64,000 nucleotides of DNA, from the NCBI GenBank assembly GCA_023460235.1, contig JAEWRE010000039.1, positions 116,820-180,819 on the forward strand, written 5' to 3'. Position 1 is the stretch's first letter; each line of letters begins with the position of its first letter. Source of the stretch: Bacillota bacterium. Its GTDB lineage: Bacteria > Bacillota > Clostridia > TANB77 > CAG-465. The notes beneath the pieces are model-generated. The model saw nothing but the letters and a program-made list of their open reading frames with translations. It did not search any database and was not told the DNA's origin. A program made the translations under genes and the position numbers. Below are positions 48,637 to 63,448 of the stretch, one piece after another.

Positions 48637-48713
48637 GGTTACATATGCACCTGTAGCTCAACTGGATAGAGTGCCGGACTACGAATCCGTAGGTTGGGGG
48701 TTCAAATCCCTTC
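48637..48713 (+). tRNA. tRNA-Arg (anticodon ACG)
   Basis: GCACCTGTAGCTCAACTGGATAGAGTGCCGGACTACGAATCCG...CAGGTGCACCA. Serves as attachment site for the downstream element. Confidence 0.85.
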
Positions 48714-48725
48714 AGGTGCACCAAA

Positions 48726-48775
48726 TTAAATAAAAACAGATCAAGTACTATATAGTACTTGATCTGTTTTTATTT
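48726..48775. terminator. Bidirectional terminator (AAAAACAGATCAAGTACTATATAGTACTTGATCTGTTTTT)
   Basis: Long perfect palindrome. Confidence 0.65.
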
Positions 48776-48952
48776 ATTATTCAATATTTTAACAGCATCC
48801 AAAATACCTATTAGATATAAAAGAGATACAAATCCATTATTTTGATTAATAAACTCAATTTCATTTTGATTAAAGATAGTTTCACTTTCTAAGATTTTTT
48901 TAATAATCAATTCTTCCATATATTCCCCCTTTTGTACTTGACATTTATACAA
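48770..48952 (-). CDS. Small hypothetical protein (60 aa)
   Basis: ORF only. Adjacent to the SinR-like regulator. Confidence 0.3.
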   Translation of the reverse strand: MYKCQVQKGEYMEELIIKKILESETIFNQNEIEFINQNNGFVSLLYLIGILDAVKILNNK

Positions 48953-49169
48953 AAAAGTATATAATGAGTTTATATATACCTTATGTATATGTTTTAAATA
49001 GATAGTTTAGTTGTTTGAGCAAGGCTATCTATTTTCTTTTATAATTATCTTTAATTTATTAAAAAATAAGAATAATTATAAATTTATTGTACAACTCCAT
49101 TTGACTAAAATCAACTATTTTTTAAAATAATCGTTCGACATGATGGCAAATTTGACAACATGTCGAACG

Positions 49170-49493
49170 CTATTTGTATTCTGATAATTTAAAGATTATT
49201 AAGTCTATTATTCTGCTAATTTTCAAAGTTTTCGGATGAGTTAGACCATAACTTTCAATATGGTAATTAAGACTTTTTTTTAGTGAATTTATTTCTTCTA
49301 CAGTATAAAAAAAATCTTTTATATTTACATCTAAAAATTTAGATATAGTATAAAGTGAATATATACTAGTATTTTCAATTTTATTATTTTCTAAATCTGA
49401 TAAATGTGAAATTGATATACCTGTACCTTTATGTATTTGATCTAGCGTATATCCTTTTTCTTCCCTAATAATTTTCATTGTTATTACTATCAT
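49170..49493 (-). CDS. SinR-like XRE HTH regulator
   Basis: 107 aa. HTH KGYTLDQIHKGTGISISHLSDLENNK, similar in size and layout to SinR (HTH plus a short helical tail). Confidence 0.45.
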   Translation of the reverse strand: MIVITMKIIREEKGYTLDQIHKGTGISISHLSDLENNKIENTSIYSLYTISKFLDVNIKDFFYTVEEINSLKKSLNYHIESYGLTHPKTLKISRIIDLIIFKLSEYK

Positions 49494-49595
49494 AATGCTT
49501 CCTCTCTAATAAAATTTAACAATTAATTATTATATATTCAATAATTAATAATTTCAATAAAACTATTAGGATTAAACTTTATTTATATATTGTAT

Positions 49596-50264
49596 TTATA
49601 TTTTAGTTAGTCCACCAGACCAAACATAATTTCCTTTTGCACTTTTGTACCATTTATTATTACCATTAACATTTTCACCTTCTACAATAGCTACTGCTTT
49701 AAATATATCACCTTTTTGAAGTAATCCTGTACCAGCTATCCCAGATTTAGAAGTTGCTTGGCTTCTTACATTAGCCTCTGATTTATCTACTCTTATATTA
49801 AAACTCTTTTCTTGTGTTTGCTCTGAATATGGCAGTATTTCCATTTGATGTTTGAAATATGGATTAGGATCTACTGGTATATTGTTTTCTCTTACTTCAA
49901 AGTGTAAATGTGCTCCAGTTACAAATCCAGTTGCTCCCATGTATCCAATTACTTGTCCATCTTCTACAATATCTCCAATATTAACACACACAGTACCTGG
50001 TTTCATATGAGCATATACTGTACTTATATTGCCACCATGTTGAATATGTACAAAATTCCCATAGCTTCCTGCTTTATATCCTGGTACGTTCTTTTCAGCA
50101 TTTATTACTTTACCTTTTTTACAAGCAATTATTTCGTCTAATTGGTAACCTTGTTTCACAAAGTCTATTCCAGAATGTTTATATGGTATACCATTTAACT
50201 TTTGATTTCCATATTGCAATGTTATTATTTCTTGTTCACTTTTTAATACATTCATGTTAAACAC
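49596..50264 (-). CDS. M23 (lysostaphin-like) peptidase with C-terminal SH3b cell-wall-binding domain: putative lysin
   Basis: 222 aa. M23 motifs HSGIDF...HxH (GAHLHFEV). SH3b-like C-terminus (KWYKSAKGNYVWSGGL). Confidence 0.7.
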   Translation of the reverse strand: MFNMNVLKSEQEIITLQYGNQKLNGIPYKHSGIDFVKQGYQLDEIIACKKGKVINAEKNVPGYKAGSYGNFVHIQHGGNISTVYAHMKPGTVCVNIGDIVEDGQVIGYMGATGFVTGAHLHFEVRENNIPVDPNPYFKHQMEILPYSEQTQEKSFNIRVDKSEANVRSQATSKSGIAGTGLLQKGDIFKAVAIVEGENVNGNNKWYKSAKGNYVWSGGLTKI

Positions 50265-50290
50265 CTCTATTTTTTTATATATTTTGTTGT

Positions 50291-51991
50291 TTAATTTTTT
50301 ATATCTACAATTTGCATTTCTGCATATCTTACTTGACCTGCGCCACCATCTTGTTGAAGTGAATGTATTATTGATTTAAACACTGTCCACGTTCCAGGTA
50401 TAGTATTCCATGCAACTTTATTAGTAGAAATCCTCATCATTCTGGCATTATTAGTTGCACCCCATATTCTCTCAAAATTGAATGAAATATTTTTGTATGA
50501 ACCATATTGATCAAATAATCCAACAACAGTGGCAGCATTATCAATTTGACAATTATCAGTATAGATTAACATCATTTGTGCATATCTACTATATCCTTCA
50601 GGTAATGGAATTCTTGAATCAATATCACTTTTAAAATTATAAAATATATTTCCTAAGTCTTTCCAACTTCCCTTATCTATATTTACAGGTGTATCTCCAG
50701 CTATACCAAATATGGGAAAACTTGCAACAATCTTATTTTTTGTAATACTATATAATTCTCTTCCTTTTCTAGCAGATAATGCATCTGTTGTACTATTACT
50801 ATCAAAGCTATCTACAACTATGGATTCAAGAGGTACGCTATTTTTAGCTTTAATAATTGAATATTCAACGAAATAAGGTTGTAAATTATTATGAGCCTGA
50901 CCGCCACCACCAAGATTAAATTTTAAATTTTGTAATGAATTTTCTGAATTATAAATCGTTGCATCTTTGTATTTTCCAGTAACTGAATTTGAACTACTAA
51001 ACACACCTTGAGGAGCCCAGGTATTAGAACCATTAGTGGATCCATGAAAATCTATCTGACCAGTAACATTAGGTATTTGATTTAAAGTTAAAGTATGTGT
51101 TTTTGCACCACCTATTGTTCCTATCTTATTAAACTCTGTTTGAGAGCTATCATGTGATACTACAACCTTCCCTTTTTTATTTGGAAGATTAAATGTTGTT
51201 GAACCATCCCCTTCTCCATACATAATTCCTATAACATCAAATAAGTCTTTATATTCTGTTCTTGATACTGCTCTACCATCTTCAATAAGCCAATTACTAG
51301 GAGGATTAGCAGAAGGATAATATCCTTCAAATCCTATAGGAAGGGTATCTGAATTTATTGTGCCTTCACTATCAACTTTAATTCCATCTGGACCAAACAC
51401 AATAATATATTTTCCATCATCAATATTTGTATAATGATATTTTGGTATATTTACATTTACGCTTGTTGCTATTGCTAATTTTATATAGAATTTTTTACCT
51501 TTAGTAAAACCTTGTGCACCTAAATCGCCTTGAAGTAAACTTTCTATTGAAAATTCACTTTTTTGTTCTTTATATACTATTTTTGATAAGTCAATTTCGA
51601 ATGGGCCATATTCAGTTCCTTCAGTTTTACCATTTTGATTATATGGAGATTCACTAGACCAATATTTTATATATTTTACATCATACTTCTCTAAATATTT
51701 TAACTTACCAGTTGCTTTAAATTTAACTTTTTCATCAACATCATTTGACCTTGTAGCCTCAACACTAGTAAAGTATGGGGTATAAAAAATTTCAACATTC
51801 AAAGGCTTAATGCTACTAGAAGTATTTCCCCTACTATCTACAATGGTTACTTTAACATAATCTTTTCCATCTTTTAAACTTTTAATCAATTTATCATCAT
51901 TTAAATAAATTGTTTCTGTTAAATAGGAATATCCATTCGGAAATATTATACCTTCCATTATAACAACACCTCCTCTGTTTGCCCGTTCCAT
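50291..51991 (-). CDS. Tail fibre / receptor-binding protein with phage tail-collar domain
   Basis: 566 aa. GGGGQAHNNLQPYFVEYSIIKA collar signature. Gly-rich, beta-rich. Confidence 0.55.
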   Translation of the reverse strand: MERANRGGVVIMEGIIFPNGYSYLTETIYLNDDKLIKSLKDGKDYVKVTIVDSRGNTSSSIKPLNVEIFYTPYFTSVEATRSNDVDEKVKFKATGKLKYLEKYDVKYIKYWSSESPYNQNGKTEGTEYGPFEIDLSKIVYKEQKSEFSIESLLQGDLGAQGFTKGKKFYIKLAIATSVNVNIPKYHYTNIDDGKYIIVFGPDGIKVDSEGTINSDTLPIGFEGYYPSANPPSNWLIEDGRAVSRTEYKDLFDVIGIMYGEGDGSTTFNLPNKKGKVVVSHDSSQTEFNKIGTIGGAKTHTLTLNQIPNVTGQIDFHGSTNGSNTWAPQGVFSSSNSVTGKYKDATIYNSENSLQNLKFNLGGGGQAHNNLQPYFVEYSIIKAKNSVPLESIVVDSFDSNSTTDALSARKGRELYSITKNKIVASFPIFGIAGDTPVNIDKGSWKDLGNIFYNFKSDIDSRIPLPEGYSRYAQMMLIYTDNCQIDNAATVVGLFDQYGSYKNISFNFERIWGATNNARMMRISTNKVAWNTIPGTWTVFKSIIHSLQQDGGAGQVRYAEMQIVDIKN

Positions 51992-52875
51992 TCTATTATT
52001 GCCTTTTTTAAGGTAGCTCCATTTTTTGCTTTAAGACTATCATTCTTTATAGCAATATAAGCATTAGATAGGGTTCCATATAATTCAAATCCAGCAATTA
52101 TATTGTTTATTTCTTGATTTGAACTAGTCCCACCCTCAATATCAAATATTCCAAAAATAGGGATCTCTGGATTACTATTAACAACCTTACATTCACCATT
52201 TGCAGTAGTAGTTCCTAAATATGTATTGTCAATATAAGTATAGAGATTAATTCTTATATTGGCTATTTTACTATTTGGCAATAAATTATAAAAAGTATCT
52301 TTTATATCAGCTAAATTGAGAGTAAAATTCTTAGAATTTTTTTCAAACTTTTTTATATTTATCCATGTATTATTTACATACATATCTAAATCTAATTTAT
52401 AATTATAATTTTGATTGGTTATATCTGATATATTTATATTTAAGTTATTTCCAATATCAAAATTTATATTAGAACTTATATTACTTGATACATAACCAGT
52501 TGGGGTTGTTAATGTTCTATCGGCTCCAGTATCGTATGTTATACTCCCTCCATTTGTGCTTTTAAATATAACTCTACAACCATTTATTTGGTTACTTCCA
52601 TATCCTTTATTAAACCAATAATAATCAGAATCAGAAGGAAAGTAACTTGTACCACTCCCATTATTTGGTGTGTTTGCTTTTATTTGTCTACCATAATTAG
52701 TTCCTTCAGTATATACATCTGAAATTATATTATAACCAAAATAATATCCATTATCTATTGCCCACGTTAATTTCCATCGTATACCAAGTCTAGGACCATC
52801 TCTTGTTGTTTCATATTCAACAATATAATTTATATGTCCCCATTGATTTTCTTTGCCTTGTGCGAATACTTGCAT
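51958..52875 (-). CDS. Tail fibre/baseplate-associated protein
   Basis: 305 aa, Asn/Gly/Tyr-rich beta-type composition. Positioned between the Tal-like and fibre genes. Confidence 0.35.
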   Translation of the reverse strand: MQVFAQGKENQWGHINYIVEYETTRDGPRLGIRWKLTWAIDNGYYFGYNIISDVYTEGTNYGRQIKANTPNNGSGTSYFPSDSDYYWFNKGYGSNQINGCRVIFKSTNGGSITYDTGADRTLTTPTGYVSSNISSNINFDIGNNLNINISDITNQNYNYKLDLDMYVNNTWINIKKFEKNSKNFTLNLADIKDTFYNLLPNSKIANIRINLYTYIDNTYLGTTTANGECKVVNSNPEIPIFGIFDIEGGTSSNQEINNIIAGFELYGTLSNAYIAIKNDSLKAKNGATLKKAIIEWNGQTEEVLL

Positions 52876-52886
52876 AATTTTTCCTC

Positions 52887-54761
52887 CTAACTATCCTTAT
52901 CATAAGATATTCCTACTCTTCCATCCTGTAGCACTGTTATTCTCATTTTTCCTATATTTAAACGTTCAAAGAAGGTTGCTCTATCAAATGTTGAATTATC
53001 GCCATTAAATTCGGCTTTAACTTTATTTGTTTCTCTATTTTTTATTATTGTTCCTTCAGCACCAAAAATTGTCTTAGTATTTTTTATTGTACTTTCAACC
53101 TCAAATCCATTATGGCCAAAAGAATAATTGGTTCCTACTAATTCACCAGGATAACTTTGATAACCAAGTCGTCCCCCTTTATTAAACATACAATCACAAA
53201 ATAATGTATAATTATTATCACTTAAAATTTCAATCTCGACTTGTGACATAGTACTATTTACTGGAAATTCTACCTCTGTAAAAATACCTGGCTCGATTTC
53301 AATATTATATATTTTTTCTATACCTGTTGTTATTTTAACTTGTACATTTGTAAGCTCTAATTTATATATAATACAACTAAATGTATATTCTGTATTTTCC
53401 TTTATTTTTATAGGAGCAAACTTTACACTACCATTATTTATTTTTATTGCTGTTTTAGATATAGTATTTTCTAAGATTTCATTATTTTGTACAATACTCA
53501 CGTTGCCATTTTTTATATTACCATCATATCCTAAACGTAAAGTACTATCTTGTAGAAGGTTCAAACCACCAGCTTGCTGTAAATTTATATTCACATTATC
53601 AACATTTTGTGTTATTTTGCTTATTCTCGTGTTATTTTCTTCTACTAAACTTGCTACTGATTGTATAGTTTGATCTTGCTTATTTACTATAATTTCTGTC
53701 CTTTTAGCAATTTCTAGAGCTGTAACTGGGTTCTCATATTCAATACTAGCCTTTGTTATACTAGGTGCTTCAAATCCTATTTCAGTTCCTTCAATATTAA
53801 TTTTTAATATTATTGTTTTAATACTTTCTCCAGATTTATTTTTTACAGTTACAGCATCACCTACTTCAATGTAAGGATATAAACAATTTTTTAAAGTCAT
53901 TGAAGAGTAACCAAAACCTGTGGATTTATTATATATTTGGCTTATTAATTGTTCTCTTTTATTTTGTGTATAGGCAAAGGGATTATCTACAAGCATTAAG
54001 TAATTTTCTCCATAGTATTGAATTCCTTCTTCCCATCTCATAGTAACATTTTCACCTTCAATATTAGATGCTCCAAGTCCAACAACTGTAATAGGTTGAA
54101 TATCTCTATTATCTTCAAATTCTGAATATTCATTAGTTTCAATTACTATATCAGTCATATTTGCAAATATTAATTTTAATTTGTCATCTATTATTTTGGC
54201 AAAATTACAACTTATACCTGAAATAGCACTAATAACATTCCCAAATTGTGCTCCATCAAATTGATTGCTATCAACAATAAATCCTGAATTTTCAAATTCA
54301 GTAAAATCATATTCAACATCACACTTAATGCAACATTCTTCAAGCACATCTAGTATTGTTACGCTACCACTTGAATAATTTAATTCTGAGTTGTACGATT
54401 TTGCAAACTTTAAACCATAATCATAAGCAGTTACTTTAATACTTTCTTTTGTATCACTTTCCTTTATATCATAAACTATAAATGTTCCATATCCTATTGA
54501 TTCCCAAGTCCCATCTTCCAGCTTAAACTCCTTAAATGCCTTAAAATCTTTTTGTTTGAAATCAATATTACTATCTGAATAATCAAATTCAATTCTCTTC
54601 ATAATAAAATTTTGTATAAAATTTCCATCTTTGTAGCAATCATCATAAAGATTAAACCACAGATATATTCTATCTGTGGTTCCATTTAAGATAATATAAT
54701 CTCTTTCAATTATATTATCTTTTTTTAGTGTATTTTTTAAAGCAATAGAAACATTTTTCAT
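52887..54761 (-). CDS. Tail-associated (Tal-like) / prophage endopeptidase-tail family protein
   Basis: 624 aa, in the position and size class of siphovirus Tal. Start ATG overlaps the upstream stop (ATGA). Confidence 0.45.
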   Translation of the reverse strand: MKNVSIALKNTLKKDNIIERDYIILNGTTDRIYLWFNLYDDCYKDGNFIQNFIMKRIEFDYSDSNIDFKQKDFKAFKEFKLEDGTWESIGYGTFIVYDIKESDTKESIKVTAYDYGLKFAKSYNSELNYSSGSVTILDVLEECCIKCDVEYDFTEFENSGFIVDSNQFDGAQFGNVISAISGISCNFAKIIDDKLKLIFANMTDIVIETNEYSEFEDNRDIQPITVVGLGASNIEGENVTMRWEEGIQYYGENYLMLVDNPFAYTQNKREQLISQIYNKSTGFGYSSMTLKNCLYPYIEVGDAVTVKNKSGESIKTIILKINIEGTEIGFEAPSITKASIEYENPVTALEIAKRTEIIVNKQDQTIQSVASLVEENNTRISKITQNVDNVNINLQQAGGLNLLQDSTLRLGYDGNIKNGNVSIVQNNEILENTISKTAIKINNGSVKFAPIKIKENTEYTFSCIIYKLELTNVQVKITTGIEKIYNIEIEPGIFTEVEFPVNSTMSQVEIEILSDNNYTLFCDCMFNKGGRLGYQSYPGELVGTNYSFGHNGFEVESTIKNTKTIFGAEGTIIKNRETNKVKAEFNGDNSTFDRATFFERLNIGKMRITVLQDGRVGISYDKDS

Positions 54762-55135
54762 TACACTATCACCTCACTACTTTTTTCTAATATGACATCA
54801 AATTCAGAATATGATTCCCCATATTTACTATATATTAAATTTTTAGATCCTTTGGTTACTATAAAATTATATTTTTTATAACTTCTTGTATTTGGATTCC
54901 AAACTTCATATTCTCCATCTACAAATCTTTCATTATATTCTTTTATAGTTGAACCATCTAGTTGCCCTATATTTATTCCAATTGTTAAAGTATTATAAGA
55001 AGCATAAATGATTTTTATGCTCCCATCTGCCTTTATAGATTTATTTAAAACAACTGGTTGTTCATCAAATTCATATCCTTCACTCAATATATTACTAAAT
55101 TTATATGTTCCTTTTTTTATTAAATAATCTTCCAT
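54761..55135 (-). CDS. Small tail component (distal-tail position)
   Basis: 124 aa, immediately after the tape measure. Short for a canonical Dit. Confidence 0.3.
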   Translation of the reverse strand: MEDYLIKKGTYKFSNILSEGYEFDEQPVVLNKSIKADGSIKIIYASYNTLTIGINIGQLDGSTIKEYNERFVDGEYEVWNPNTRSYKKYNFIVTKGSKNLIYSKYGESYSEFDVILEKSSEVIV

Positions 55136-55144
55136 ATGTACCTC

Positions 55145-56368
55145 CTAGAAGCCATACTGTAATTCTAATTTTTTATTTACTCTATTTGTGTTTTTTGCAA
55201 CTTTTTCTCCATCTAGTTCTACGGTAGAGTTTATAATTATTTCTTTATTATCACTTATGGCTTGTAATGTTGCCTGTGTTTTATCTTCATTTTCCACTTG
55301 CATTGTTGCTGTAGACGTTAAATTAGCACTTAATTTTCCTGTTTCAATATCTATTGTTTTTTGCATATCAGCATAAACATATTTTATATTTTTTATAAAT
55401 CCCTCTCCAATGCCCAGAGCTATATACTTGCCTACTTCATCCCTAAATTCTTTTGATGGACTATGTATTCCTAATACGCTTTTCATTCCATCTAATATTC
55501 CTTTTGCAAAACTTGCAATTTTATCTTTTAACCATGCAGCAGCATTATTTATTCCATTCCACAAGCCTTCAACAATGTTTTTACCTATATTTAACATATT
55601 GGCCGGTAAATCATTAAAAAAATTAGATATGTTTTCTATTATTAATGGTATGTTTTCCATGATCATATTTTTCATATTAATAATCCATAATTCAATATTA
55701 TCTATAGTTTTTAATAACAAATTTAAAATATTTTCTGGTAATTCTCTAAACCAATTTATTACACTATTTATTATTTTTGGTAGTTCTGTTGTAATCCAAC
55801 TAGTTATATCTATTCCAAATTTAATAATATACCCTAAAACCACCCCTATTAGATACCCTACATTATATGGTAATTCTTTGAACCAGTTTATTGCCATAGA
55901 TATCCAACTAGGTATTGTTTCAATAAAAAAATTACCTATAGCATTGAATACTTCTGATATCACATCTTTAACATTGTTAAAGATGTCAATAATTGCATTT
56001 CTAAAATCTTCATTTGTTGTCCATAGATATATTATTGATGCAATTAATCCTGCAATCAAGCCTACAATTATAGGAATAGGATTTGACAACAACATTGCAA
56101 AGTTTAAATTAATCTGTGATGTCGTCATTACATCTAATGCATTGCTTACTATCTGTATAATTTCACTTACTTCTTTTGCTAAACCTAATGCTGCATCAAA
56201 TGAAGCTATTACCTCATTCATAGACATTGATGATTGTAAAGCCATAAACACCCCTGTTAACGGAATTATTACTTTCACTAAATTATTTAATTTATCTGTG
56301 GCTTCTTGTGCATCACTTGCAACAGAGACAATTGGATTTTTTATCGATTTATTTGATTCTTTTGCCAT
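55145..56368 (-). CDS. Tail tape measure protein (unusually short, 407 aa)
   Basis: Position after the chaperone pair, helical composition, internal hydrophobic segments (IPIIVGLIAGLIASIIYLW) typical of tape measure proteins. Confidence 0.5.
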   Translation of the reverse strand: MAKESNKSIKNPIVSVASDAQEATDKLNNLVKVIIPLTGVFMALQSSMSMNEVIASFDAALGLAKEVSEIIQIVSNALDVMTTSQINLNFAMLLSNPIPIIVGLIAGLIASIIYLWTTNEDFRNAIIDIFNNVKDVISEVFNAIGNFFIETIPSWISMAINWFKELPYNVGYLIGVVLGYIIKFGIDITSWITTELPKIINSVINWFRELPENILNLLLKTIDNIELWIINMKNMIMENIPLIIENISNFFNDLPANMLNIGKNIVEGLWNGINNAAAWLKDKIASFAKGILDGMKSVLGIHSPSKEFRDEVGKYIALGIGEGFIKNIKYVYADMQKTIDIETGKLSANLTSTATMQVENEDKTQATLQAISDNKEIIINSTVELDGEKVAKNTNRVNKKLELQYGF

Positions 56369-56387
56369 CTTTTCACCTCACTTTTAC

Positions 56388-56424
56388 AAAAAAGAATGCA
56401 TCCTTAGATGCATTCTTTTTTCTA
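56388..56424. terminator. Hairpin with flanking T-runs inside the tail gene string (AAGAATGCATC-CTTA-GATGCATTCTT)
   Basis: Perfect 11-bp stem between the chaperone and tape-measure genes. Possible attenuator. Confidence 0.4.
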
Positions 56425-56466
56425 ATTTTATTTTTTATTATTTGATTCTTTCTTATATATATTGTT

Positions 56467-57042
56467 TTACCAAAAAACACTACCAAAATCCCTTTCTTTT
56501 TCTTCTGTTGTGCGTACATCAGGCAACGCATATAATTTTCTTAGTTTTTTATAGTGATTCTTTGTTTCTTTATCTTTAATCTTAGATAAATCAATTGCTC
56601 TATAACCCATTATTTTTGATATTTGGGTATTTTCATTTAATCCATTAAACATAGCTTTGAATTCCCACCAGTGTAAGCATTTTACTTTGTTTAAATTTAT
56701 TTGATATTGTTCTAAAAAAGCATCAAAAATATAATCTGCATCAAATTGATAACTGTATATTTGATTTGATCTATTATCATTATTTTCAGAACTGACTAAT
56801 TCTTTCTTTTCATCTCTTCCACATCGATAAAACCAAAGCATGTCTTTTATAGCAATATTGATATCCTTAATTTTAGATAAATCATAATAGAGATTAAGAG
56901 CAAGTAGAATTTTATCTTTTTCAAATATTTTATTATCTTGCATAAGTAATTCAAATTTAATAGAAGTCCTAAAGTCTGTATCTATTTCAAGTCCATTTTG
57001 AGTTATTTGGGGTAATTTATCTAATAATATATTAGTTAGCAT
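56467..57042 (-). CDS. Tail assembly chaperone (gpT / Gp15-like position)
   Basis: 191 aa. Synteny only. Confidence 0.35.
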   Translation of the reverse strand: MLTNILLDKLPQITQNGLEIDTDFRTSIKFELLMQDNKIFEKDKILLALNLYYDLSKIKDINIAIKDMLWFYRCGRDEKKELVSSENNDNRSNQIYSYQFDADYIFDAFLEQYQINLNKVKCLHWWEFKAMFNGLNENTQISKIMGYRAIDLSKIKDKETKNHYKKLRKLYALPDVRTTEEKERDFGSVFW

Positions 57043-57045
57043 ATA

Positions 57046-57399
57046 CTACTTCCTTTTTTGTACTCTTCTTTGTTCTCTATTAGGTTGATATCTATTAAAA
57101 GTATTTTCAAATTCCTTTTGCTGTTCTAATTTCTCTTTAACAATATCCTCAAAAGCAGTTATACAATCTTGTAAATTATTTTTTTCACCAAAAATATTAA
57201 GTGATACTCCTTCACCGAAAACATTATCAAAGAATTCCTTTATTAGTATACATTCTAATTTTATAGTTTCAGATAATTTCATATCTTTTTTTTCATATTC
57301 TTCTGCCTTTTCTTTAACCTTTTGCACTTCAATTTCAAATTTTTCAACGCAATCAGCATCTAAAAAATCAAAATCAACTTCTACTTCTCTTATTTTCAT
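57046..57399 (-). CDS. Tail assembly chaperone (gpG-like position)
   Basis: 117 aa, acidic, directly after the major tail protein. Confidence 0.35.
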   Translation of the reverse strand: MKIREVEVDFDFLDADCVEKFEIEVQKVKEKAEEYEKKDMKLSETIKLECILIKEFFDNVFGEGVSLNIFGEKNNLQDCITAFEDIVKEKLEQQKEFENTFNRYQPNREQRRVQKRK

Positions 57400-57402
57400 C
57401 TA

Positions 57403-57891
57403 TTATTCCTCCTCTGCTGTAAATGTTGATGATTCCCAATTATCAGTTGTACTTGCTATACCTTCAATTATATCTCCTTGTGCTGCAAAAGTACCACTAT
57501 ATTGATAAGCATCAGTTCCATCGCCATCAGCTTCTGGAATTACTGAATATACTCTCTTTTTAGCTTTAAATGTTCCAGCTGTTGAACCAGCTTCATTAAA
57601 ATTAACTGTAACTATCTCAACAATCTTGCCAGTAATTTCTTTATCATGTACTTCTGCTATAAGATCTTGTACATCATTATCAATCATTCTGTCAAAGTTA
57701 TATGCAATTTCTGTTGCATATCCAGTAACATCTTTTCTTTGTGTTCTTTCCTCAACATATCTTCTTTCATATGTACTTGAATTTAAACTTTTTCCACTTT
57801 CAGTAAATCCAGTCATTCTTGAATAATTTTCTCCGTTAGCTGTAGCTTTCATAAAATTTACGATATCTGCTCTGTTATATAATTTTCCCAT
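57403..57891 (-). CDS. Major tail (tube) protein, TP901-1-like family
   Basis: 162 aa. Size and sequence character (TGYATEIAYNFD...GTFAAQGD) fit siphovirus major tail proteins. No sheath gene nearby. Confidence 0.55.
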   Translation of the reverse strand: MGKLYNRADIVNFMKATANGENYSRMTGFTESGKSLNSSTYERRYVEERTQRKDVTGYATEIAYNFDRMIDNDVQDLIAEVHDKEITGKIVEIVTVNFNEAGSTAGTFKAKKRVYSVIPEADGDGTDAYQYSGTFAAQGDIIEGIASTTDNWESSTFTAEEE

Positions 57892-57893
57892 TT

Positions 57894-58307
57894 TTAATTT
57901 CCTCCTTCAAAATAAACAACTTGCATTTTTACTATGTAGTTTGCAATCGTCTCATTTTTTTGCAAAATATATCCTGGTGTTGTACATTTTATACTTTCAA
58001 TTCCAGATATATTAAGCAAATTACTAGATTTGTTTTGTGTTTCAATCCATTTATTAAAATCTTCAAAAAATTTACTGTTAGTAAGATTTTGAAGATCAGT
58101 AAATGAGCCACTAACAGTAAAATCAAATGTCATTTGCTTTAAACTACTACCATCAGCATATTGTTTATAAACTAAATTAGATTGTGTTAAATCCATGCTG
58201 TAATTACTTATTTCATCACTAACATAATCAACAATTATTTTTCCATTTTCAAAACATGGACATGTTGCTATAATGTCTTTAACTAATTCTATCTTTGATT
58301 TAGACAT
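57894..58307 (-). CDS. Putative tail completion/terminator protein
   Basis: 137 aa. First gene of the tail string. Confidence 0.3.
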   Translation of the reverse strand: MSKSKIELVKDIIATCPCFENGKIIVDYVSDEISNYSMDLTQSNLVYKQYADGSSLKQMTFDFTVSGSFTDLQNLTNSKFFEDFNKWIETQNKSSNLLNISGIESIKCTTPGYILQKNETIANYIVKMQVVYFEGGN

Positions 58308-58882
58308 TTTAATATACTCCTCTACCTCTTTGCAAATTTTTCTCCTTATATATATAGAAAATTACAATTCAATTATAATATTGTATTTAAAAGTATTTAA
58401 CTTTTATTCAGATTATAATAAAAAATTAATGTTTATCTTTTTACTCTTTAACCAAGATAGTTTGTATTTGTTTTCTTATTTTTATATAATACTTTGAGTA
58501 TAAATCATATTAAAACTTTAACATTATAATATCTCTACGTATAGATATTATTTAATATAAATCTATATGTTTATATGATATATACTCTAATAAAAATAAG
58601 TTTCTAATATAAATATATTTCTATTTTTAGTATTAATTTTTTTATATACTTTGAATTGTTAGATTCTACATATTTTCAGATTTTAAATTTTGCATTGAAA
58701 CTTTTGATAATGATTTTAACTAATTTGATAATTTATCCTCCAGCTGAAAGGTTGTTAATTTATTAAATTAGTATCTCATCATCACTATTGTATAATCTAA
58801 ACTATTTATTAGTTAGATTATATGCTTCTTTAACGTCTAGCTCCAAAGACGAAATTACCTTAGATGCTATTAATTTTTTTAA

Positions 58883-59308
58883 TTATTTTACATCCAAATT
58901 TTTATCTTTTAATTGTGTAAGTATATCTTTTAATTTATTTGGATATGGAACTCCTAATTTTGTTGTATTTTCTAAAAGTGAGATTCCTTCGTTGGCAATA
59001 TAAAAGAATATTGATAGTTTCCTTAGCATATCAATGTTAAGTGCTTGATCTAGCATGTTGCATAAACCTATTAAACCAAAAATTAAGAATTTTTTAAATA
59101 TACCTTTATATCCAACCTCAGAATTTAAATTTTTATTTATAAATATTGCCACTGCAAGTCCAGTTATAAAGTCAGTAAATGTAAATGCAACTAAAACACT
59201 CATAGAAATATCCCATCCACCTAAATAATTTAATATCAATGTACCAAGTGTAGCAAATATTAAACAAATCCATTGCCCAATTTCACTTAAATTACTTAAT
59301 CTAAACAT
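58883..59308 (-). CDS. Holin, TcdE / phage_holin_4_1 family
   Basis: 141 aa, 3 TM. Block GGWDISM...FTDFITGLAVAI...GYKGIFKKFLIFGLIG...GVPYPNKLKDIL parallels C. difficile TcdE. Confidence 0.65.
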   Translation of the reverse strand: MFRLSNLSEIGQWICLIFATLGTLILNYLGGWDISMSVLVAFTFTDFITGLAVAIFINKNLNSEVGYKGIFKKFLIFGLIGLCNMLDQALNIDMLRKLSIFFYIANEGISLLENTTKLGVPYPNKLKDILTQLKDKNLDVK

Positions 59309-59524
59309 TTTTCACCTCCCTTTTTTCTAAATAAAAAAACATTGTACTTATACAACGTTTTTTATTAATAGAATTTATATTAAATCTATGACTTATTACA
59401 AGCTAATTAAATTAAAGTAAATTAATTTGTAAAATTTATCTAATGTTTATATCTATTGCTATTATACATTATAACATGGTTTTTATATAAATTTCTATTC
59501 TTTAAATCCCAGTTTTTTCCCAAT

Positions 59525-60157
59525 TTAATAATTTGTTCTGATAATACCTAATAATTTAGTTTTAATGTTAGATAGTTTATTCTGAAGCCTTTTTTGAGTC
59601 AGCTCCTTATTAAAATTTTTATTATATGAAATTTCAATATCAGACCAATCCATAATTTCATAATACTTACATTCTATCAAAAACATTTCTTTTGGACTTA
59701 ATATATTAAAAGCTATCTCTAGTTTACGTATCTCAATTTCAATTAAGGCTTTCTCACTTTTTGCTATTTTTATTAATTCTTCAGCTTGTTTTTGATTTAA
59801 TTCATTTCTTATTGCTTCGCTTTCAACAGGACTATATAATCTATTTTTTGCTCTAGGCATTCCAAATGTGGATTCTGGAGTATTAGTAAAAATATTTTCA
59901 TTTTCTTCAAGGGCTTTATTCCATGTATTTATTCTTTCAGATAATGTAGCAATTTTTGCTTTATTATTTATATAATTTTTTAGCATTCTATTTACATCTT
60001 TCATATCTAATAAGGCATCTGCACATGGTGTACTACTTTCTCTATTAAATTTTCTTGGTTCTTTACAAAATCTACAATAACTATAACTTTCACACATACC
60101 ACCATTACACTTTATAGCTCCTTTTTCTAGTTTATCTTGTATTTGTTCTTTATTCAT
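59525..60157 (-). CDS. Putative late-gene transcriptional activator: sigma-70 region-4-like C-terminal HTH with N-terminal Cys4 cluster
   Basis: 210 aa. C-terminus LSPKEMFLIECKYYEIMDWSDIEISYNKNFNKELTQKR resembles region 4 / ArpU-RinA-type activators. N-terminus CNGGMCESYSYCRFC. Confidence 0.4.
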   Translation of the reverse strand: MNKEQIQDKLEKGAIKCNGGMCESYSYCRFCKEPRKFNRESSTPCADALLDMKDVNRMLKNYINNKAKIATLSERINTWNKALEENENIFTNTPESTFGMPRAKNRLYSPVESEAIRNELNQKQAEELIKIAKSEKALIEIEIRKLEIAFNILSPKEMFLIECKYYEIMDWSDIEISYNKNFNKELTQKRLQNKLSNIKTKLLGIIRTNY

Positions 60158-60202
60158 ATACCCTCTTTCCTCCTTTTAAAATTATTATATCTTATTTTAA
60201 TA

Positions 60203-60385
60203 TTAATCTTTTTTACACTCATTGTGCTTTTCATATGTATAATTTAATACTCTAATAATCTCTTTAGCTAATGACTGATCTTTATTTTTATAAAATATCC
60301 TTTGGATTAAATTATGTATATCAGCATAATTACTTTGATGTATTTTTTCATTTCTAATATAATCTTCAATAGTGTAGTATTTCAT
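60203..60385 (-). CDS. Small protein (60 aa), first gene leftward of the divergent control region
   Basis: ORF only. Confidence 0.3.
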   Translation of the reverse strand: MKYYTIEDYIRNEKIHQSNYADIHNLIQRIFYKNKDQSLAKEIIRVLNYTYEKHNECKKD

Positions 60386-60448
60386 TTTCTATTTCCTCCC
60401 TCATATTACTAACTTTTCATATATTTATTTTAACTTAAGAAAACCTTT

Positions 60449-60618
60449 TGATCGTATAAATAGTTTTTAATTCATATCAATTTATTTTCTTGTTACGATA
60501 ATTATATACCACTTTAATTATCGTGTCAAGTATATTTTTAAATTTATTATCGTCTGCCGTTTATTATGTAATTTTTATTGACACGATAATATGAATATGA
60601 TATAATTATATTGACAAG
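60449..60618. promoter_or_regulatory. Divergent control region with repeated operator half-sites (ACGATAAT / ATTATCGT) and a sigma-A promoter for the repressor gene
   Basis: Near-palindrome CTTGTTACGATAATTA-N11-TAATTATCGTGTCAAG at 60489-60530. Further half-sites at ~60547 and 60586. -35 TTGACA (60579) and -10 TATAAT (60602). RBS AAGGAG before ATG 60649. Confidence 0.5.
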
Positions 60619-60648
60619 AAAATTTTTTAAAAAAATAAGGAGAAAATA

Positions 60649-61017
60649 ATGAATGAATCTGATAGAGAATTAATTGGTAAGAGACTAAAGTCAAGAAGAG
60701 AGTTAGCTGGATTAACTCAAGAACAAGTTGGTGAAAAAATAGGAAAAACCTTTGCTACTGTTGCAAAATATGAAAGTGGTGAAATAAAAAATATAGATAT
60801 AATGGTTATTAGCACAATTGCTGATATAACTGAAACTGACATTGACTATTTATTATTAAAAAATGATGATCCAAACCCTAAGAGCAATTATATAAAGTAT
60901 AAACATTTAAATAATTCTTTAATAGGTAGAGTTTCTAAAAAAATGGAAGGGATGTCAGATAACGAGCTGCAAATGCTTGATAAGATAATAGATGCTCTTA
61001 TGAATGAAAAGAAATAA
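60649..61017 (+). CDS. XRE-family HTH repressor (ImmR/CI-like)
   Basis: 122 aa with an N-terminal HTH (LTQEQVGEKIGKTFATVAKYESGE). Confidence 0.6.
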   Translation: MNESDRELIGKRLKSRRELAGLTQEQVGEKIGKTFATVAKYESGEIKNIDIMVISTIADITETDIDYLLLKNDDPNPKSNYIKYKHLNNSLIGRVSKKMEGMSDNELQMLDKIIDALMNEKK

Positions 61018-61026
61018 AATTGGAGA

Positions 61027-61449
61027 ATGTGTGTTATGAAAAAATTTTATGATTATATACAAAAGGAAAATATTATATATAAAGAAGATTATATTGATGA
61101 AAATATAAAGGGACTATGCATAAAACTACCGAACAGTAAGACTGCTATTATTCTTAACAATAGTCTAATAGAAAATAAAATTGAAAGAAACTGTATTCTT
61201 GCGGAAGAATTAGGACACTATTATTGTGATGCCCTTTATTCACCATTTTGTAAAGATCAAACGATAATAGATCGAAATGAATATAGAGCAAAGAAATGGG
61301 CATTTAAGTCTATCATAGGTAAAAAATTAAATCAAAATATAAAAAAGTATAAAAATATGCTTAAATATGAAGTTGCTGAAGAAATTGGTGTAACTGAAGA
61401 TATGCTTGATATGGCATATGATTATTATAAAAGAAATGAGGCGCTTTAA
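61027..61449 (+). CDS. ImmA/IrrE-like (DUF955) putative metallopeptidase with variant motif (EELGH instead of HExxH)
   Basis: 140 aa. ILAEELGHYYCD. Translationally coupled to the repressor gene. Confidence 0.4.
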   Translation: MCVMKKFYDYIQKENIIYKEDYIDENIKGLCIKLPNSKTAIILNNSLIENKIERNCILAEELGHYYCDALYSPFCKDQTIIDRNEYRAKKWAFKSIIGKKLNQNIKKYKNMLKYEVAEEIGVTEDMLDMAYDYYKRNEAL

Positions 61450-61479
61450 TAGTTGGTAGTTATAGGGAACATGGAAATT

Positions 61480-61927
61480 GATATGAATTAAAATATACTT
61501 ACAAAGAAAAAACAAATTATAAAACAATTAAATTAAGCAAAGCTATGAATATAGATACTGAATTACAAAGATTTGTAATTGCTATTGAAGATAAAGTATC
61601 ACCTACCTCATCTATTAACTTTACAGTTTATGCTCAAAATGGTTGGATGAATATGCTTATCCAAAATTATCTGCCAAAACAATATAAGGTTACAAGGAAC
61701 AATTAAACAATAAAATAATTCCTTATTTTGGAAGTATGCAATTGAAAGACATTACAACTTATAATATTCAACTTTTTTTAAATGATTTATCAAAGGAATT
61801 TATAGTCGAGAAAATAGTAAAAGGTGAGAAAATAACACAATTAACACAATTAACAGGATGCACAATAAAAAATACAAAGATTAATTTCAGTTATGCTCAA
61901 TTCAGCAGTAAAGTGGCAATTAATTGA
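61480..61927 (+). pseudogene. Tyrosine-integrase remnant (N-terminal AP2-like/core-binding fragments only, frameshifted, catalytic domain absent)
   Basis: Frame a: YELKYTYKEKTNYKTIKLSKAMNIDTELQRF...YLPKQYK. Frame b: IPYFGSMQLKDITTYNIQLFLNDLSKEF (classic integrase N-terminal signature). The ORF ends about 70 nt before the att repeat. Confidence 0.5.
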
Positions 61928-61998
61928 ATTTAATCCGTGTATATATGTATATTTCTTAAAGGTAAAGAAAGTACAATAAAGTCAGTTTTTTTAATAGA

Positions 61999-62046
61999 CT
62001 ACGAATCCCCGTAGGCTGGGGGTTCGAATCCCTTCAGGTGCACCAT
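61999..62046 (+). repeat. attR-like partial copy of the tRNA-Arg(ACG) 3' end
   Basis: GACTACGAATCCCCGTAGGCTGGGGGTTCGAATCCCTTCAGGTGCACCA versus the tRNA GACTACGAATCCGTAGGTTGGGGGTTCAAATCCCTTCAGGTGCACCA. No 5' half present. Confidence 0.75.
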
Positions 62047-62073
62047 TATAATTACTGTGATATCAAGCATTAT

Positions 62074-62547
62074 CTAAATATTTTGCTTGATATTTTTTTT
62101 ATCATAACTTGATTTTTTTACTGTAACAAGAATACTAAATAATAATGTTTGTATTAATATTTCTAGTAAACCTCCAATTTGTAAACTTAATGGTTCTTTA
62201 GAAGGATAAAGATATATAAATTCTTCAATTGAAAAAGAAGCTGTACCAGGTGTATTAAAAATTCCTAATATTATAAGAATCAACCATACTCTTAACCATC
62301 CATATTTATTATTGATATAACTATTTCTAATTAATACTAGAACTATTCCAAATAGAATACCTCTAATAATTTGAAAAAGTGGTGCCATTTTAACTATAAT
62401 ACTACTCATATCTCTTCGAGTTGAACTATCAATTAGGGAACTCTGATAATTAAATATTTGTGAAAAAACAATACCACAAACTACATATGTTATAACATGA
62501 ATTATAGTTACTTTAAATATAAATTTTATTTTCTCATTTTTTATCAT
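62074..62547 (-). CDS. Membrane protein (4 TM)
   Basis: 157 aa. Confidence 0.35.
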   Translation of the reverse strand: MIKNEKIKFIFKVTIIHVITYVVCGIVFSQIFNYQSSLIDSSTRRDMSSIIVKMAPLFQIIRGILFGIVLVLIRNSYINNKYGWLRVWLILIILGIFNTPGTASFSIEEFIYLYPSKEPLSLQIGGLLEILIQTLLFSILVTVKKSSYDKKNIKQNI

Positions 62548-62586
62548 TTTTCTTACTATTTTATATAGATATTTTGCAGATATATT

Positions 62587-63210: not shown

Positions 63211-63448
63211 AATAAAAATCTCCTTTCTATTTTTATTATATCAATATCCTAGTTACACCTCAACCAAGTAGACCTTTAAATTTGTCAACTAACGGTTGCA
63301 TGATATCTTAATTATCTTTTTTTACAAAAATTATACTATAAAAAGAAATAATTTAATATATGAATTTTAGAATTATAATAAAATATTATTATTTTTCTTT
63401 ATAAATTTATGCATACTATTATTAATATAGTTAGCTTTTAATATCTGA

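Follow-up and report, generated by a model that had tools for sequence, protein, structure and literature searches.

Gene content and boundaries of the element

Within the 64-kb stretch of DNA analyzed here (hereafter the window), an element of ~13 kb occupies positions about 48724-61996 and extends beyond the range given in the initial annotation. The host is an uncultured gut member of the Clostridia, and the element is a former prophage that has been domesticated. The ten tail and lysis ORFs, the holin gene and the gene of a 210-aa regulator were found on the minus strand, at the coordinates first proposed for them. The features are listed below; identities refer to L002, a locus from the genome of one other species, and to L080, a third variant.

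48647..48723, plus strand: tRNA-Arg(acg), left boundary of the element (ARAGORN and Rfam tRNA)
48677-48723, plus strand: left att-like direct repeat, the 3′ half of tRNA-Arg (repeat via blastn-short)
48729..48774, no strand: 20-bp palindromic hairpin directly after tRNA-Arg, terminator-like on both strands
49170..49493, minus strand: 107-aa HTH protein with Spo0E-like C-terminus, SinR/SlrR-like (Pfam, NCBIfam)
49596..50264, minus strand: M23 peptidase, 222 aa, probable endolysin (PF01551, E=1e-25)
50291..51991, minus strand: fibre/receptor-binding protein, 566 aa, with Collar and Gp10_C-like domains (Pfam, PHROG)
51958..52875, minus strand: 305-aa protein, no family match, conserved in L002 (70%) and L080 (87%), dN/dS 0.26
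52887..54761, minus strand: 624-aa tail-tip/hub (Tal-like) protein (phrog_6616, tail protein, E=7e-26)
54761..55135, minus strand: 124-aa protein in the distal-tail-protein position, placed by position and homologues
55145..56368, minus strand: tape measure protein (TMP), 407 aa (phrog_1272, E=2.6e-55; also phrog_58)
56388..56421, minus strand: strong hairpin with a U tract after it, separating the chaperone genes from the TMP gene (fold -21.7 kcal/mol, z = -7.5)
56467..57042, minus strand: Phage_Gp15-family protein, 191 aa, putative tail assembly chaperone (PF06854, E=3e-51)
57046..57399, minus strand: DUF6673 protein, 117 aa, putative tail assembly chaperone by position (PF20378, E=2e-28)
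57403..57891, minus strand: major tail (tube) protein, 162 aa (phrog_3099; AlphaFold and Foldseek)
57894..58307, minus strand: tail completion/terminator protein, 137 aa (phrog_3266, E=1.5e-27)
58299..58343, minus strand: possible Minor_capsid_2 connector remnant, last ~15 codons (weak tblastn match, 53% over 15 aa, E=0.7)
58308..58882, no strand: non-coding spacer, 575 bp, where the closest full phage has scaffold, capsid and connector genes
58883..59308, minus strand: holin, 141 aa, Phage_holin_4_1 (PF05105, E=3.5e-35)
59445..59497, minus strand: conserved promoter-like block with extended -10 (TGTTATAAT), nearly identical with L002 over ~45 nt (promoter scan)
59525..60157, minus strand: 210-aa late-gene regulator (phrog_36, E=2e-6); four invariant Cys, HTH-like domain at the C-terminus
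60203..60385, minus strand: 60-aa early protein, conserved in L002 (62%), dN/dS 0.16
60386..60648, no strand: switch region with two divergent promoters and four operator-like half-sites
60649..61017, plus strand: HTH_3 repressor, 122 aa (PF01381, E=2e-12; phrog_8; dN/dS 0.09)
61027..61449, plus strand: M78/ImmA-like putative anti-repressor, 140 aa (phrog_87 metallo-protease, E=2e-15)
61545..61979, plus strand: integrase pseudogene, ORF fragments over three frames (PF14659, E=3e-8)
61997..62045, plus strand: right att-like boundary, a degenerate 49-nt copy of the tRNA-Arg 3′ half

The right att-like copy agrees with the tRNA-Arg 3′ half at 45 of 49 positions, a 2-nt indel included. The integrase match was obtained on the concatenated ORF fragments and covers an N-terminal SAM-like part without the catalytic domain, which bears out the earlier reading of this gene as a pseudogene. 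Both the integrase stump and the right att copy are missing from L002. As the att repeat is degenerate and the integrase reduced to a stump, the element appears to be immobilized. The 107-aa HTH protein is encoded inside the element, behind a promoter-like site of its own (49557-49529); the protein is 90-92% identical to its L002 and L080 copies, with a dN/dS of 0.14.

Tail, fibre and lysin genes

Profile searches supported most of the tail assignments proposed at first, with the exception of the 124-aa protein, which gave no match in family searches, and the 305-aa protein, which gave none in Pfam, PHROG and NCBIfam. In all relatives the 137-aa gene immediately precedes the tube gene. Besides phrog_3099, the 162-aa tube protein weakly matches phrog_238 (major tail protein), and its AlphaFold model (pLDDT 78.5), compared with Foldseek, matches the tubes of 80alpha/SaPI1, NF5, monocin, lambda and SPP1. 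The protein is thus predicted to adopt a siphovirus tube fold of generic type, and the label "TP901-1-like" has no specific support; the closest solved sequence relative is the tube of a Clostridium histolyticum tailocin (PDB 11OK; phmmer E=1.8e-10, profile E=1.2e-11).

Downstream of the tape measure gene, the 124-aa protein, unusually short for a Dit protein, is placed by homologues of 76% identity that L070 and L071, both full phages, encode after the TMP. Over its N-terminal ~400 aa the hub shares homology with a full-phage protein whose gene comes next after those of the TMP and the 124-aa protein. Its position and its homologues in related phages place the 305-aa protein as a putative baseplate or fibre-associated component. 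The tape measure of the window is the shortest of three variants (407 aa vs. 544 aa in L002 and 599 aa in L080), and its N-terminal ~90 aa are unrelated to those of the other two. Because of this short length and foreign N-terminus, the window copy could assemble poorly. The hairpin at 56388..56421 could act as a partial terminator or attenuator.

The tail-collar signature noted earlier in the 566-aa fibre was found (motif GGGGQAHNNLQPY), within a protein carrying Collar plus Gp10_C domains. Its true start is probably Met12 (51958), giving a 1-nt overlap with the stop of the 305-aa gene, as in L080. Behind the Collar domain lies a hypervariable cassette (alignment columns ~280-400), in which identity among the three variants drops to 7-35%; the rest of the protein aligns at 45-95% identity. 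In the lysin, the "SH3b" label goes back to a C-terminal SH3_3 match below cut-off (E=0.028), so that an SH3-like domain is weakly indicated.

Holin, late regulator and switch

The holin is 71% identical to the holin encoded inside the head module of phage L001. Between its gene and that of the 210-aa regulator, just downstream of the latter, lies the conserved block at 59445..59497, a candidate late promoter. It is followed by a hairpin and U tract just before the holin ribosome-binding site. Terminator-like hairpins thus stand just upstream of both the holin and the tape measure gene, and could block late expression barring read-through. A 56%-identical homologue of the 210-aa regulator has a DUF722 match (E<=1e-5) and closer relatives carry precomputed PF05263 matches. 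Its homologues are encoded directly upstream of terS in full phages, some of them from the element's own phage family.

The switch region contains two perfect divergent sigma-70-type promoters, at 60529-60501 (minus strand) and 60578-60606 (plus strand). Between 60495 and 60590 it also has four operator-like half-sites of the sequence ACGATAAT. L002 shares these motifs. Seven copies of ACGATAAT occur in the whole window vs. 1.75 expected, and four of the seven are in the switch region. The M78/ImmA-like protein, whose Pfam M78 match is below cut-off, has the lowest dN/dS in the element (0.054). Its motif reads AEELGH instead of HEXXH, and the missing first His counts against the tailocin reading proposed below. 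A LexA box was looked for and none is present; with this and the AEELGH motif, the "SOS-type" switch of the initial annotation holds as an analogy only.

Absence of head genes and a possible deletion scar

No head, packaging or replication genes were found anywhere in the 64-kb window. A tblastn search of it with head proteins from the closest full phage returned noise only, iterated head and connector profiles gave no match, and no head or packaging family turned up when the larger ORFs in the rest of the window were scanned with NCBIfam and Pfam. No sheath gene was found by Pfam and PHROG profile searches. The originally claimed lack of sheath, capsid, packaging and replication genes is thereby upheld for the window.

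In the ancestral family the late region runs in the order late regulator, terS, terL, portal, minor capsid, (holin), scaffold, capsid, connectors, tail. The block from regulator to tail measures 8.6 kb in phage L078 vs. 1.2 kb in the window. The 575-bp spacer, which has no Rfam match, was described earlier as a promoter gap; the gap exists, but it can be aligned with L002 at its two ends only and holds no conserved promoter region. The stretch at 58299..58343 lies at the expected connector position and is also conserved with L002; its weak Minor_capsid_2 match suggests a possible deletion scar of a lost connector gene.

Among 63 evaluable loci (related loci with enough upstream DNA), head-tail connector genes adjoin the tail genes, on their upstream side, in 61 (the closest full phages L001, L070 and L071 plus 58 others), most of which also carry portal and other head genes. 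The two exceptions are the window and L002. These data bear on the idea that the element is one half of a split phage or of a gene-transfer-agent-like system, with head and packaging genes elsewhere in the chromosome. Split GTA clusters exist in other bacteria, and our search covered 64 kb of the window genome and 20 kb of the L002 contig, which leaves room for such a partner. Yet about 48 kb on one side and about 2 kb on the other are free of head genes; the deletion, which reaches up to the tail terminator gene, took with it the genes for head completion and connectors that head-tail joining requires; and the connectors are contiguous with the tail module in 61 of 61 intact relatives. We thus regard a split system as highly improbable.

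Conservation and selection

L002 has an identical tail-only layout, with the same junctions, flanks and chromosomal tRNA-Arg site. Its flanking DNA is 72% identical to that of the window and the element ~80%. All 16 ORFs are intact in both; the disruption of tail genes that had been named as a refutation was thus not found. For 14 of the 16 genes dN/dS between window and L002 is 0.05-0.27, at dS 0.4-1.5, and it is ~0.5 for the 137-aa protein and the tape measure. A very recent transfer between L002 and the window is contradicted by these dS values and by the syntenic, diverged flanks. In the third variant, L080/L081, the tail module and the spacer upstream of the 137-aa gene are the same as in the window. 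The element is known from these three occurrences only; since the architecture reappears in two further assemblies, it is not due to chance. The comparative check proposed initially, for an intact cluster with fibre variation, was thus borne out by the second species and by the fibre cassette, which is hypervariable among the three variants.

These results weigh on whether the element is an inert prophage remnant in decay, its tail genes not yet hit by mutation. The att scar and integrase stump are still recognizable, suggesting that the element is not ancient, the spacer between holin and tail genes is decaying neutral DNA, and the tape measure of the window is shortened. Against this, a second species retains the 16 genes without disruption although the nucleotide sequences differ by about 20%, and dN/dS stays well below 1, while random substitution at a neutral 5% divergence produced at least 23 premature stops in 200 of 200 simulation runs; moreover, the spacer has diverged beyond alignment and the genes have not. 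A decaying remnant is therefore strongly disfavored, with hardly any probability left to it.

Selection may also act on the tail-only element for a benefit other than bacteriocin killing. It could serve as a tail donor for a capsid-forming satellite or for a further defective prophage of its host cell, or as a regulated lysis module, in which the holin and the M23 lysin release DNA, vesicles or public goods and the tails are passengers. Purifying selection and conservation show that the element is useful, not for what; the lowest dN/dS values (0.05-0.2) belong to lysis genes and regulators, and the monocin element of Listeria is co-regulated with a resident phage (PMC9043618). On the other hand, purifying selection acts on the tail structural genes as well (dN/dS 0.20 for the tube, 0.16 for the hub and 0.27 for the fibre), the hypervariable fibre cassette is expected of a target-recognition device under diversifying pressure, and no capsid-only partner of a tail donor was seen within the 64-kb window. 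We consider a non-killing benefit unlikely, though less so than a split system or decay.

Proposed origin and mechanism

Taken together, the element is probably a selectively maintained, independently domesticated candidate F-type tailocin, reduced to a non-contractile tail, a lysis system and a control circuit. The core of the first interpretation, a tail-only phage-derived cluster with lysis genes and a switch, is sustained by the layout kept in L002, the lack of connectors in 2 of 63 loci and the hypervariable fibre. Gene order and homology indicate a temperate siphovirus as ancestor, from which two deletions flanking the holin took out about 8 kb that held the genes for packaging, head and connectors. 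The replication genes and the integrase catalytic domain were lost too. The remaining 16 genes, as judged from sequence comparison, are under purifying selection in at least two species that share the tRNA-Arg site.

In the mechanism that we propose, a stress signal would lead the ImmA-like protein to inactivate the HTH repressor, which would otherwise bind the four ACGATAAT sites over the two divergent promoters. The 60-aa and 210-aa early genes would then be expressed, and the 210-aa regulator would turn on late transcription at the conserved promoter that closely follows its gene, whereupon the holin, tail proteins and M23 lysin would be made. The tape measure, two chaperones, the 124-aa protein and the 624-aa hub would nucleate a tube of 162-aa subunits, with a predicted length of roughly 60 nm (407 aa at about 0.15 nm per residue). 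This tube would be capped by the 137-aa protein and decorated with the 305-aa and 566-aa fibre proteins. Holin and lysin would burst the producer cell, and the particles could bind related strains via the hypervariable fibre cassette and kill them by membrane breach, as proposed for monocin and F-pyocins.

Comparison with known systems

Headless tail clusters of this kind are already known in other Gram-positive bacteria. The monocin of Listeria monocytogenes (ftbA-R, F-type) is likewise a chromosomal headless siphovirus-tail cluster of similar size (PMC11830787). Both elements comprise tail terminator, tube, two chaperones, tape measure, distal protein, hub, fibres, holin and lysin, both pair a repressor with a metalloprotease-type anti-repressor (PMC11830787, PMC9043618), and the tube folds are similar (Foldseek E ~1e-3). 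However, no sequence homology was detectable between the window proteins and any solved monocin chain, and the window element derives from a different phage family. Its holin gene lies upstream of the tail genes, whereas that of monocin adjoins the lysin; its lysin is an M23 peptidase, its distal protein has only 124 aa, its tape measure 407 aa vs. 622 aa, and its anti-repressor motif is AEELGH.

Efagin of Enterococcus faecalis is a 14.6-kb chromosomal locus for a headless phage-derived particle; it is highly conserved apart from one fibre gene, in which the targeting domain varies (bioRxiv 10.64898/2025.12.13.693970). Compared by description rather than by sequence, it differs in being core to the whole species with no sign of mobility, whereas the window element is found in three assemblies and retains an att scar and integrase stump. 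Diffocin of Clostridioides difficile (R-type) is also a headless tail bacteriocin of a clostridial-type host, but its tail is of the contractile, sheathed kind and has a baseplate of myovirus type; the window has no sheath gene.

The initial annotation regarded a flexible-tail particle as an undescribed class for this lineage, which no longer holds, since an F-type tailocin of C. histolyticum NCTC 503 (locus 02168-02181) was reported in 2026, its particle seen by EM and mass spectrometry (bioRxiv 10.64898/2026.06.17.733002). Like the candidate particle of the window element, it is clostridial, sheath-less and headless. Compared by sequence through the tube protein only, the two are 28% identical over 149 aligned residues, and the tube gene is duplicated in C. 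histolyticum and single-copy in the window. Much closer are the uncultured temperate siphoviruses of the Gp15/DUF6673 tail family (L001, L070, L071, L078). Their tail completion protein, tube, chaperones, tape measure, 124-aa protein and hub are homologous to those of the window, mostly 41-76% identical and in conserved order, as are their holin and 210-aa late regulator. They differ in carrying terS, terL, portal, minor capsid, scaffold, capsid and three connectors between regulator and tail. The tubes of the closest full phages (L001, L070, L071) are 72-74% identical to that of the window. As free-phage tubes are far closer (58-74%) than the C. histolyticum tube (28%), the two clostridial elements were domesticated independently.

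A complete non-contractile tail module with its own lysis cassette

The initial annotation had read the minus-strand ORFs at 49596-60157 as a phage tail and lysis cluster. Every one of these ORFs is present, and profile searches against Pfam and PHROG backed most of the tail and lysis assignments; the 124-aa and 305-aa proteins gave no match in these searches.

Profile assignments of the tail and lysis genes of the element
137 aa, minus strand: tail completion protein (phrog_3266)
162 aa, minus strand: phrog_3099, with a weak match to major tail protein phrog_238
117 aa, minus strand: DUF6673
191 aa, minus strand: Phage_Gp15
407 aa, minus strand: tape measure protein (phrog_1272, E=2.6e-55)
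624 aa, minus strand: tail protein (phrog_6616)
566 aa, minus strand: Collar and Gp10_C
222 aa, minus strand: Peptidase_M23
141 aa, minus strand: Phage_holin_4_1 (PF05105)

The 162-aa protein was modeled on an alignment of 44 homologues (pLDDT 78.5), and the top structural matches of the model were siphovirus tail tubes, namely those of 80alpha/SaPI1, NF5, monocin (MttP), lambda (gpV), and SPP1. The tube gene lies directly after the tail completion gene with no sheath gene between them, and no ORF matched a sheath family in the profile searches, in agreement with the earlier claim that a sheath is lacking. The non-contractile tail module is complete, comprising the terminator, tube, chaperones, tape measure, distal and hub proteins, and fibres, and the element has a lysis cassette of its own, formed by the PF05105 holin and the M23 peptidase. 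Sequence comparison of the hub (624 aa), 124-aa, and 137-aa proteins with the PDB yielded nothing useful. Many homologues of the tube protein have a long form (241–251 aa vs. ~160 aa; P0007, P0008, P0077, P0091–P0093, and others; 9098-9823 in the full-phage locus L071), the additional length of which is presumably a C-terminal decoration domain. The short form was seen in all three tail-only variants.

Loss of head genes and phage ancestry

Neither the element nor the rest of the 64-kb window yielded a capsid, portal, terminase, or replication gene in searches by tblastn and with iterated profiles or in Pfam and NCBIfam scans, which upholds the claim that head genes are absent near this site. 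None were found either at L002, the locus of a second species with the same tail-only layout. A tblastn comparison of the whole window with the head proteins of L001, a closely related full phage, recovered nothing but one weak positional match (E=0.7), which lies directly upstream of the 137-aa gene and covers the terminal 15 codons of the last connector gene.

Metagenomes contain hundreds of tube-protein homologues. L001, with a tube 74% identical to that of the window, has the gene order terS, terL, portal, minor capsid, a 73-aa gene, a Phage_holin_4_1 holin, scaffold, major capsid, and three connector genes, followed by tail genes ordered as in the window; L070 and L071 (tube 72–73% identical) are full phages too, and these three are the closest ones. 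All genes of these three phages from tail completion to hub have intact homologues in the window in the same order, while the fibre region past the hub differs. We then used the tube alignment to survey prokaryotic genomes, one for each species, and obtained 65 loci, which were mapped by tblastn and afterward with iterated profiles built for nine families of head and connector proteins. Connector genes occur upstream of the tube gene in 61 of the 63 evaluable loci (those with at least 3 kb upstream of that gene), and portal and other head genes in most; connector genes are absent only in the window and L002 (2/63). The window thus lacks the hallmarks of an intact siphovirus of the Gp15/DUF6673 family, that is, head, packaging, connector, and replication genes and an integrase, of which a stump is left.

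The holin of the window is 71% identical to that of L001, which is embedded in the head module, an unusual position for a holin. Since its home lies inside this module, the simplest history would consist of two deletions, one on either side of the holin, and the split lysis cassette of the window would follow from the same ancestral position. The interval between the minor capsid and scaffold genes is a variable cargo slot, occupied by the holin in L001 (6499-6921) and by two small ORFs in L070 (5817-6252) and L071.

Comparison of the element with 50,697 phage records by megablast gave no match. At the protein level, Ruminococcus phage RG-TP1 (42%) was the sole match to the tube protein and none of these records matched the 210-aa protein, indicating that no cultured close relative is known. 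At two of the related loci the tube gene is present in two copies several kb apart (L018, 8664-9140 and 17431-17919; L056, 2635-3108 and 10787-11230), which recalls the duplicated tube gene (TTP*) reported at the tailocin locus of Clostridium histolyticum.

Ends and chromosomal setting of the element

The window has a G+C content of ~26% and is chromosomal, as judged from its housekeeping genes, which include gyrA, dnaX, mutS, mutL, and dapL. By its GyrA, the host belongs to a clade of “Clostridia bacterium” metagenome-assembled genomes. A second copy of the 3′ half of tRNA-Arg(acg) (48677-48723), identical at 45 of 49 positions, lies at 61997-62045, and this pair of repeats places the element at ~48724-61996 (13.3 kb). 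Just inside the right repeat we found the integrase as three short ORF fragments in differing frames. Once concatenated, these fragments match the N-terminal SAM-like domain of phage integrases (PF14659, E=3e-8) and nothing beyond it; the catalytic domain is lost, so the gene is a pseudogene, as first proposed.

Several further genes were observed in the element or elsewhere in the window:
49170-49493, minus strand: 107-aa HTH/Spo0E-like gene with its own promoter-like site, between the lysin gene and the tRNA
44845-46089, plus strand: 414-aa ORF between dapL and tRNA-Arg(cct), with a C-terminal Tad4 domain
9990-11924 and 23030-25215, minus strand: two T4SS coupling-protein genes, VirD4-like (CD1115 family) and TrwB-like

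The 107-aa protein is the most conserved of the element (90–92% identical) and could tie it to sporulation or biofilm decisions, or serve as an immunity-type regulator. In the 414-aa protein, the C-terminal ~100 residues match Tad4 (PF25186, E=4e-24), a type I Thoeris inhibitor; such an anti-defence domain is unusual in an apparently chromosomal gene. The two coupling-protein genes, together with a T4SS pilin gene, are interspersed with housekeeping genes such as gyrA and dnaX and may be what is left of one or two conjugative elements.

Conservation in a second species and purifying selection

L002, a metagenome-assembled genome labeled “Bacillota bacterium OH_CBB_1”, is collinear with the window over the whole element and both flanks, with a nucleotide identity of ~80% in the element and 72% in the flank. 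The two have in common 16 genes, the holin-spacer-tail junction, and the tRNA-Arg. In L002, 138 bp (5721-5859) stand in place of the ~2 kb at window positions 61450-63469, so that the integrase stump and the right att copy are missing along with the DNA next to them, including the genes for two membrane proteins, one of 157 aa and the other a membrane-anchored HTH protein of 207 aa. The right edge of the element has thus been remodeled differently in the two species.

At the codon level, dS between the window and L002 ranges from 0.4 to 1.5, and dN/dS is 0.05–0.27 for 14 of the 16 genes; values of ~0.5 were obtained for the 137-aa protein and the tape measure, which is poorly alignable. In a neutral simulation by random substitution (200 trials, premature stops counted over the 16 genes), 5% substitution produced at least 23 premature stops in 200/200 trials and 20% substitution ~133 stops. 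Neither the window nor L002 has a premature stop in any of these genes. Selection, syntenic flanks, the lost integrase, and the outcome of the simulation together distinguish a host-maintained element from a decaying prophage. The third variant, recovered from two Logan runs (L080/L081), has the tail module, lysin, HTH gene, and tRNA at 84–92% nucleotide identity to the window, and its first 152 nt align to the window spacer, not to a connector gene. An assembly artefact was also considered and is ruled out, as three independent assemblies have a common layout. The comparative analysis that the initial annotation had called for thus found the cluster intact in a second species and the fibre variable between variants.

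Regulatory switch and late control

The genes for an HTH_3 repressor (122 aa) and an M78/ImmA-like protein (140 aa; phrog_87, E=2e-15) adjoin the integrase fragments and are divergent from the 60-aa and 210-aa genes. The 263-bp intergenic region holds two perfect divergent TTGACA-17-TATAAT promoters, and the motif ACGATAAT occurs there in four copies within 100 bp (7 in the whole window vs. 1.75 expected). The element accordingly has its own regulatory switch, made up of the repressor, M78-like protein, divergent promoters, candidate operators, and a late regulator. The adjacent repressor and M78-like genes are strongly conserved. In both the window and L002 the M78-like protein has the motif AEELGH, not HEXXH, and its dN/dS of 0.054 is the lowest of all genes. 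In monocin, a CI-like repressor is cleaved by the metalloprotease anti-repressor MpaR (PMC9043618), and it is by analogy to that system that we infer a link of the switch to DNA damage. A search for a LexA box found none, and we do not keep the SOS label that the initial annotation gave the switch.

The 210-aa protein matches phrog_36 (“transcriptional regulator”), and four cysteines are invariant throughout its family, which also shares an HTH-like region at the C terminus. Pfam did not recover DUF722 on the window’s own protein; a 56%-identical homologue matches it at E≤1e-5, and the protein is assigned to DUF722 because its relatives carry the match. Its predicted structure was of low quality (pLDDT 66); no Foldseek match reached significance, and the resemblance to sigma region 4 was local. 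The protein may be an activator or an antiterminator. In unrelated full prophages (L067, L068/L069), members of this family close the early region and immediately precede terS, and the same position was seen in phages of the same tail family (L073, L076–L079). The distance from the 210-aa gene to the tail completion gene is 8.6 kb in L078 vs. 1.2 kb in the window.

The 575-bp gap had been proposed as the promoter of the tail genes. As a conserved promoter region it is ruled out: it aligns to L002 only at its ends, in a hairpin-containing stretch after the holin stop codon and in the last ~40 nt, and its divergence matches the expectation for neutral DNA at that distance. The best-conserved non-coding stretch is found elsewhere, just downstream of the 210-aa gene, and consists of an extended –10 block (TGTTATAAT and ~40 nt around it) followed by a hairpin and U tract that differs in sequence in L002 and keeps its form. 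This block, rather than the 575-bp gap, is likely the late-promoter/leader region. An Rfam search of the spacer and leader regions returned no known RNA.

Variation between tail-only variants

Most proteins of the window and L080 are 85–97% identical, vs. 66% overall for the fibre. A block of the fibre just after the Collar domain (alignment columns ~280–400) is only 7–35% identical in all three pairwise comparisons. The tape measure also differs in length (407 aa in the window, 544 aa in L002, and 599 aa in L080), from which tail lengths of ~60–90 nm are predicted. The N-terminal ~90 residues of the window tape measure are unrelated to those of L002 and L080, yet match tape-measure profiles. 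Between the chaperone and tape measure genes, L002 and L080 have a zinc-ribbon ORF (~45–73 aa, CPxC...CKNC; ~2040-2080 in L080); the window has instead a strong hairpin with a U tract (56388-56421; –21.7 kcal/mol, z = –7.5). The site may serve as a slot for morons or, alternatively, as an attenuator controlling how much tube protein is made relative to tip proteins.

Nature of the element and comparison with known tailocins

The element genuinely has a tail-only architecture, which sets it apart from its relatives, is shared across species, and is subject to purifying selection. The element is very probably a selectively maintained headless-tail element. That it acts as a functional bactericidal F-type tailocin is a somewhat favored reading of its gene content, with the following caveats: terminator-like hairpins precede the holin and tape measure genes, the protease motif is non-canonical (AEELGH), and the window tape measure is shortened and mosaic. 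The hypervariable fibre cassette is the sole indirect hint of killing of related strains. We regard as evenly balanced the further proposal of an independently domesticated F-type tailocin lineage in an uncultured gut clade of Clostridia, caught early in domestication. In the window species an att scar and the remnant of the integrase persist, and in L002 both have been erased. On this view the variable block of the fibre would be a swappable receptor-binding cassette.

To our knowledge, few F-type tailocins of Gram-positive bacteria are known (monocin, efagin, and the C. histolyticum particle), and none come from uncultured gut anaerobes. As free phage relatives survive, the domestication steps can be reconstructed as two deletions that spared a head-module holin. 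An independent domestication with sampled phage ancestors (58–74% tube identity) would allow the route from prophage to weapon to be spelled out and tested, showing which genes were deleted, which were spared, and how lysis and late-control genes were kept. What separates the three variants is chiefly the length of the tape measure and one cassette of the fibre, which correspond to length and target range, the two parameters that tailocin engineering seeks to control. If active, the 10.6-kb cluster would be small enough for heterologous expression, as done for monocin, and a narrow-spectrum agent against a poorly accessible gut clade would be possible. The element is of interest mainly because its domestication can be followed in detail and because it offers natural variants of length and receptor.

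Diffocin-like R-type particles have a contractile sheath, which the window lacks. Monocin, encoded by an 18-gene ftb cluster, resembles the window element in its logic and set of structural roles (PMC11830787). At the protein level the similarity is confined to the tube fold, with no detectable sequence homology to solved Ftb chains: the tube profile gave no match to monocin chains at E≤10, and the hub, 124-aa, and fibre proteins none to the solved chains at E≤1. Efagins are a further recent Gram-positive parallel. By sequence, the closest solved structure to the window tube is PDB 11OK (phmmer E=1.8e-10 with the single sequence, E=1.2e-11 with the profile, 28% identity), the tube of an F-type tailocin in C. 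histolyticum collagenase preparations, according to the data-availability statement of that paper. This particle gives F-type tailocins in clostridia a published precedent, so that the element does not represent an undescribed class for this lineage, as had been suggested. The C. histolyticum locus has a duplicated tube gene and the window a single one. Tubes of free phages are 58–74% identical to that of the window vs. 28% for C. histolyticum, which points to a separate domestication of the window element.
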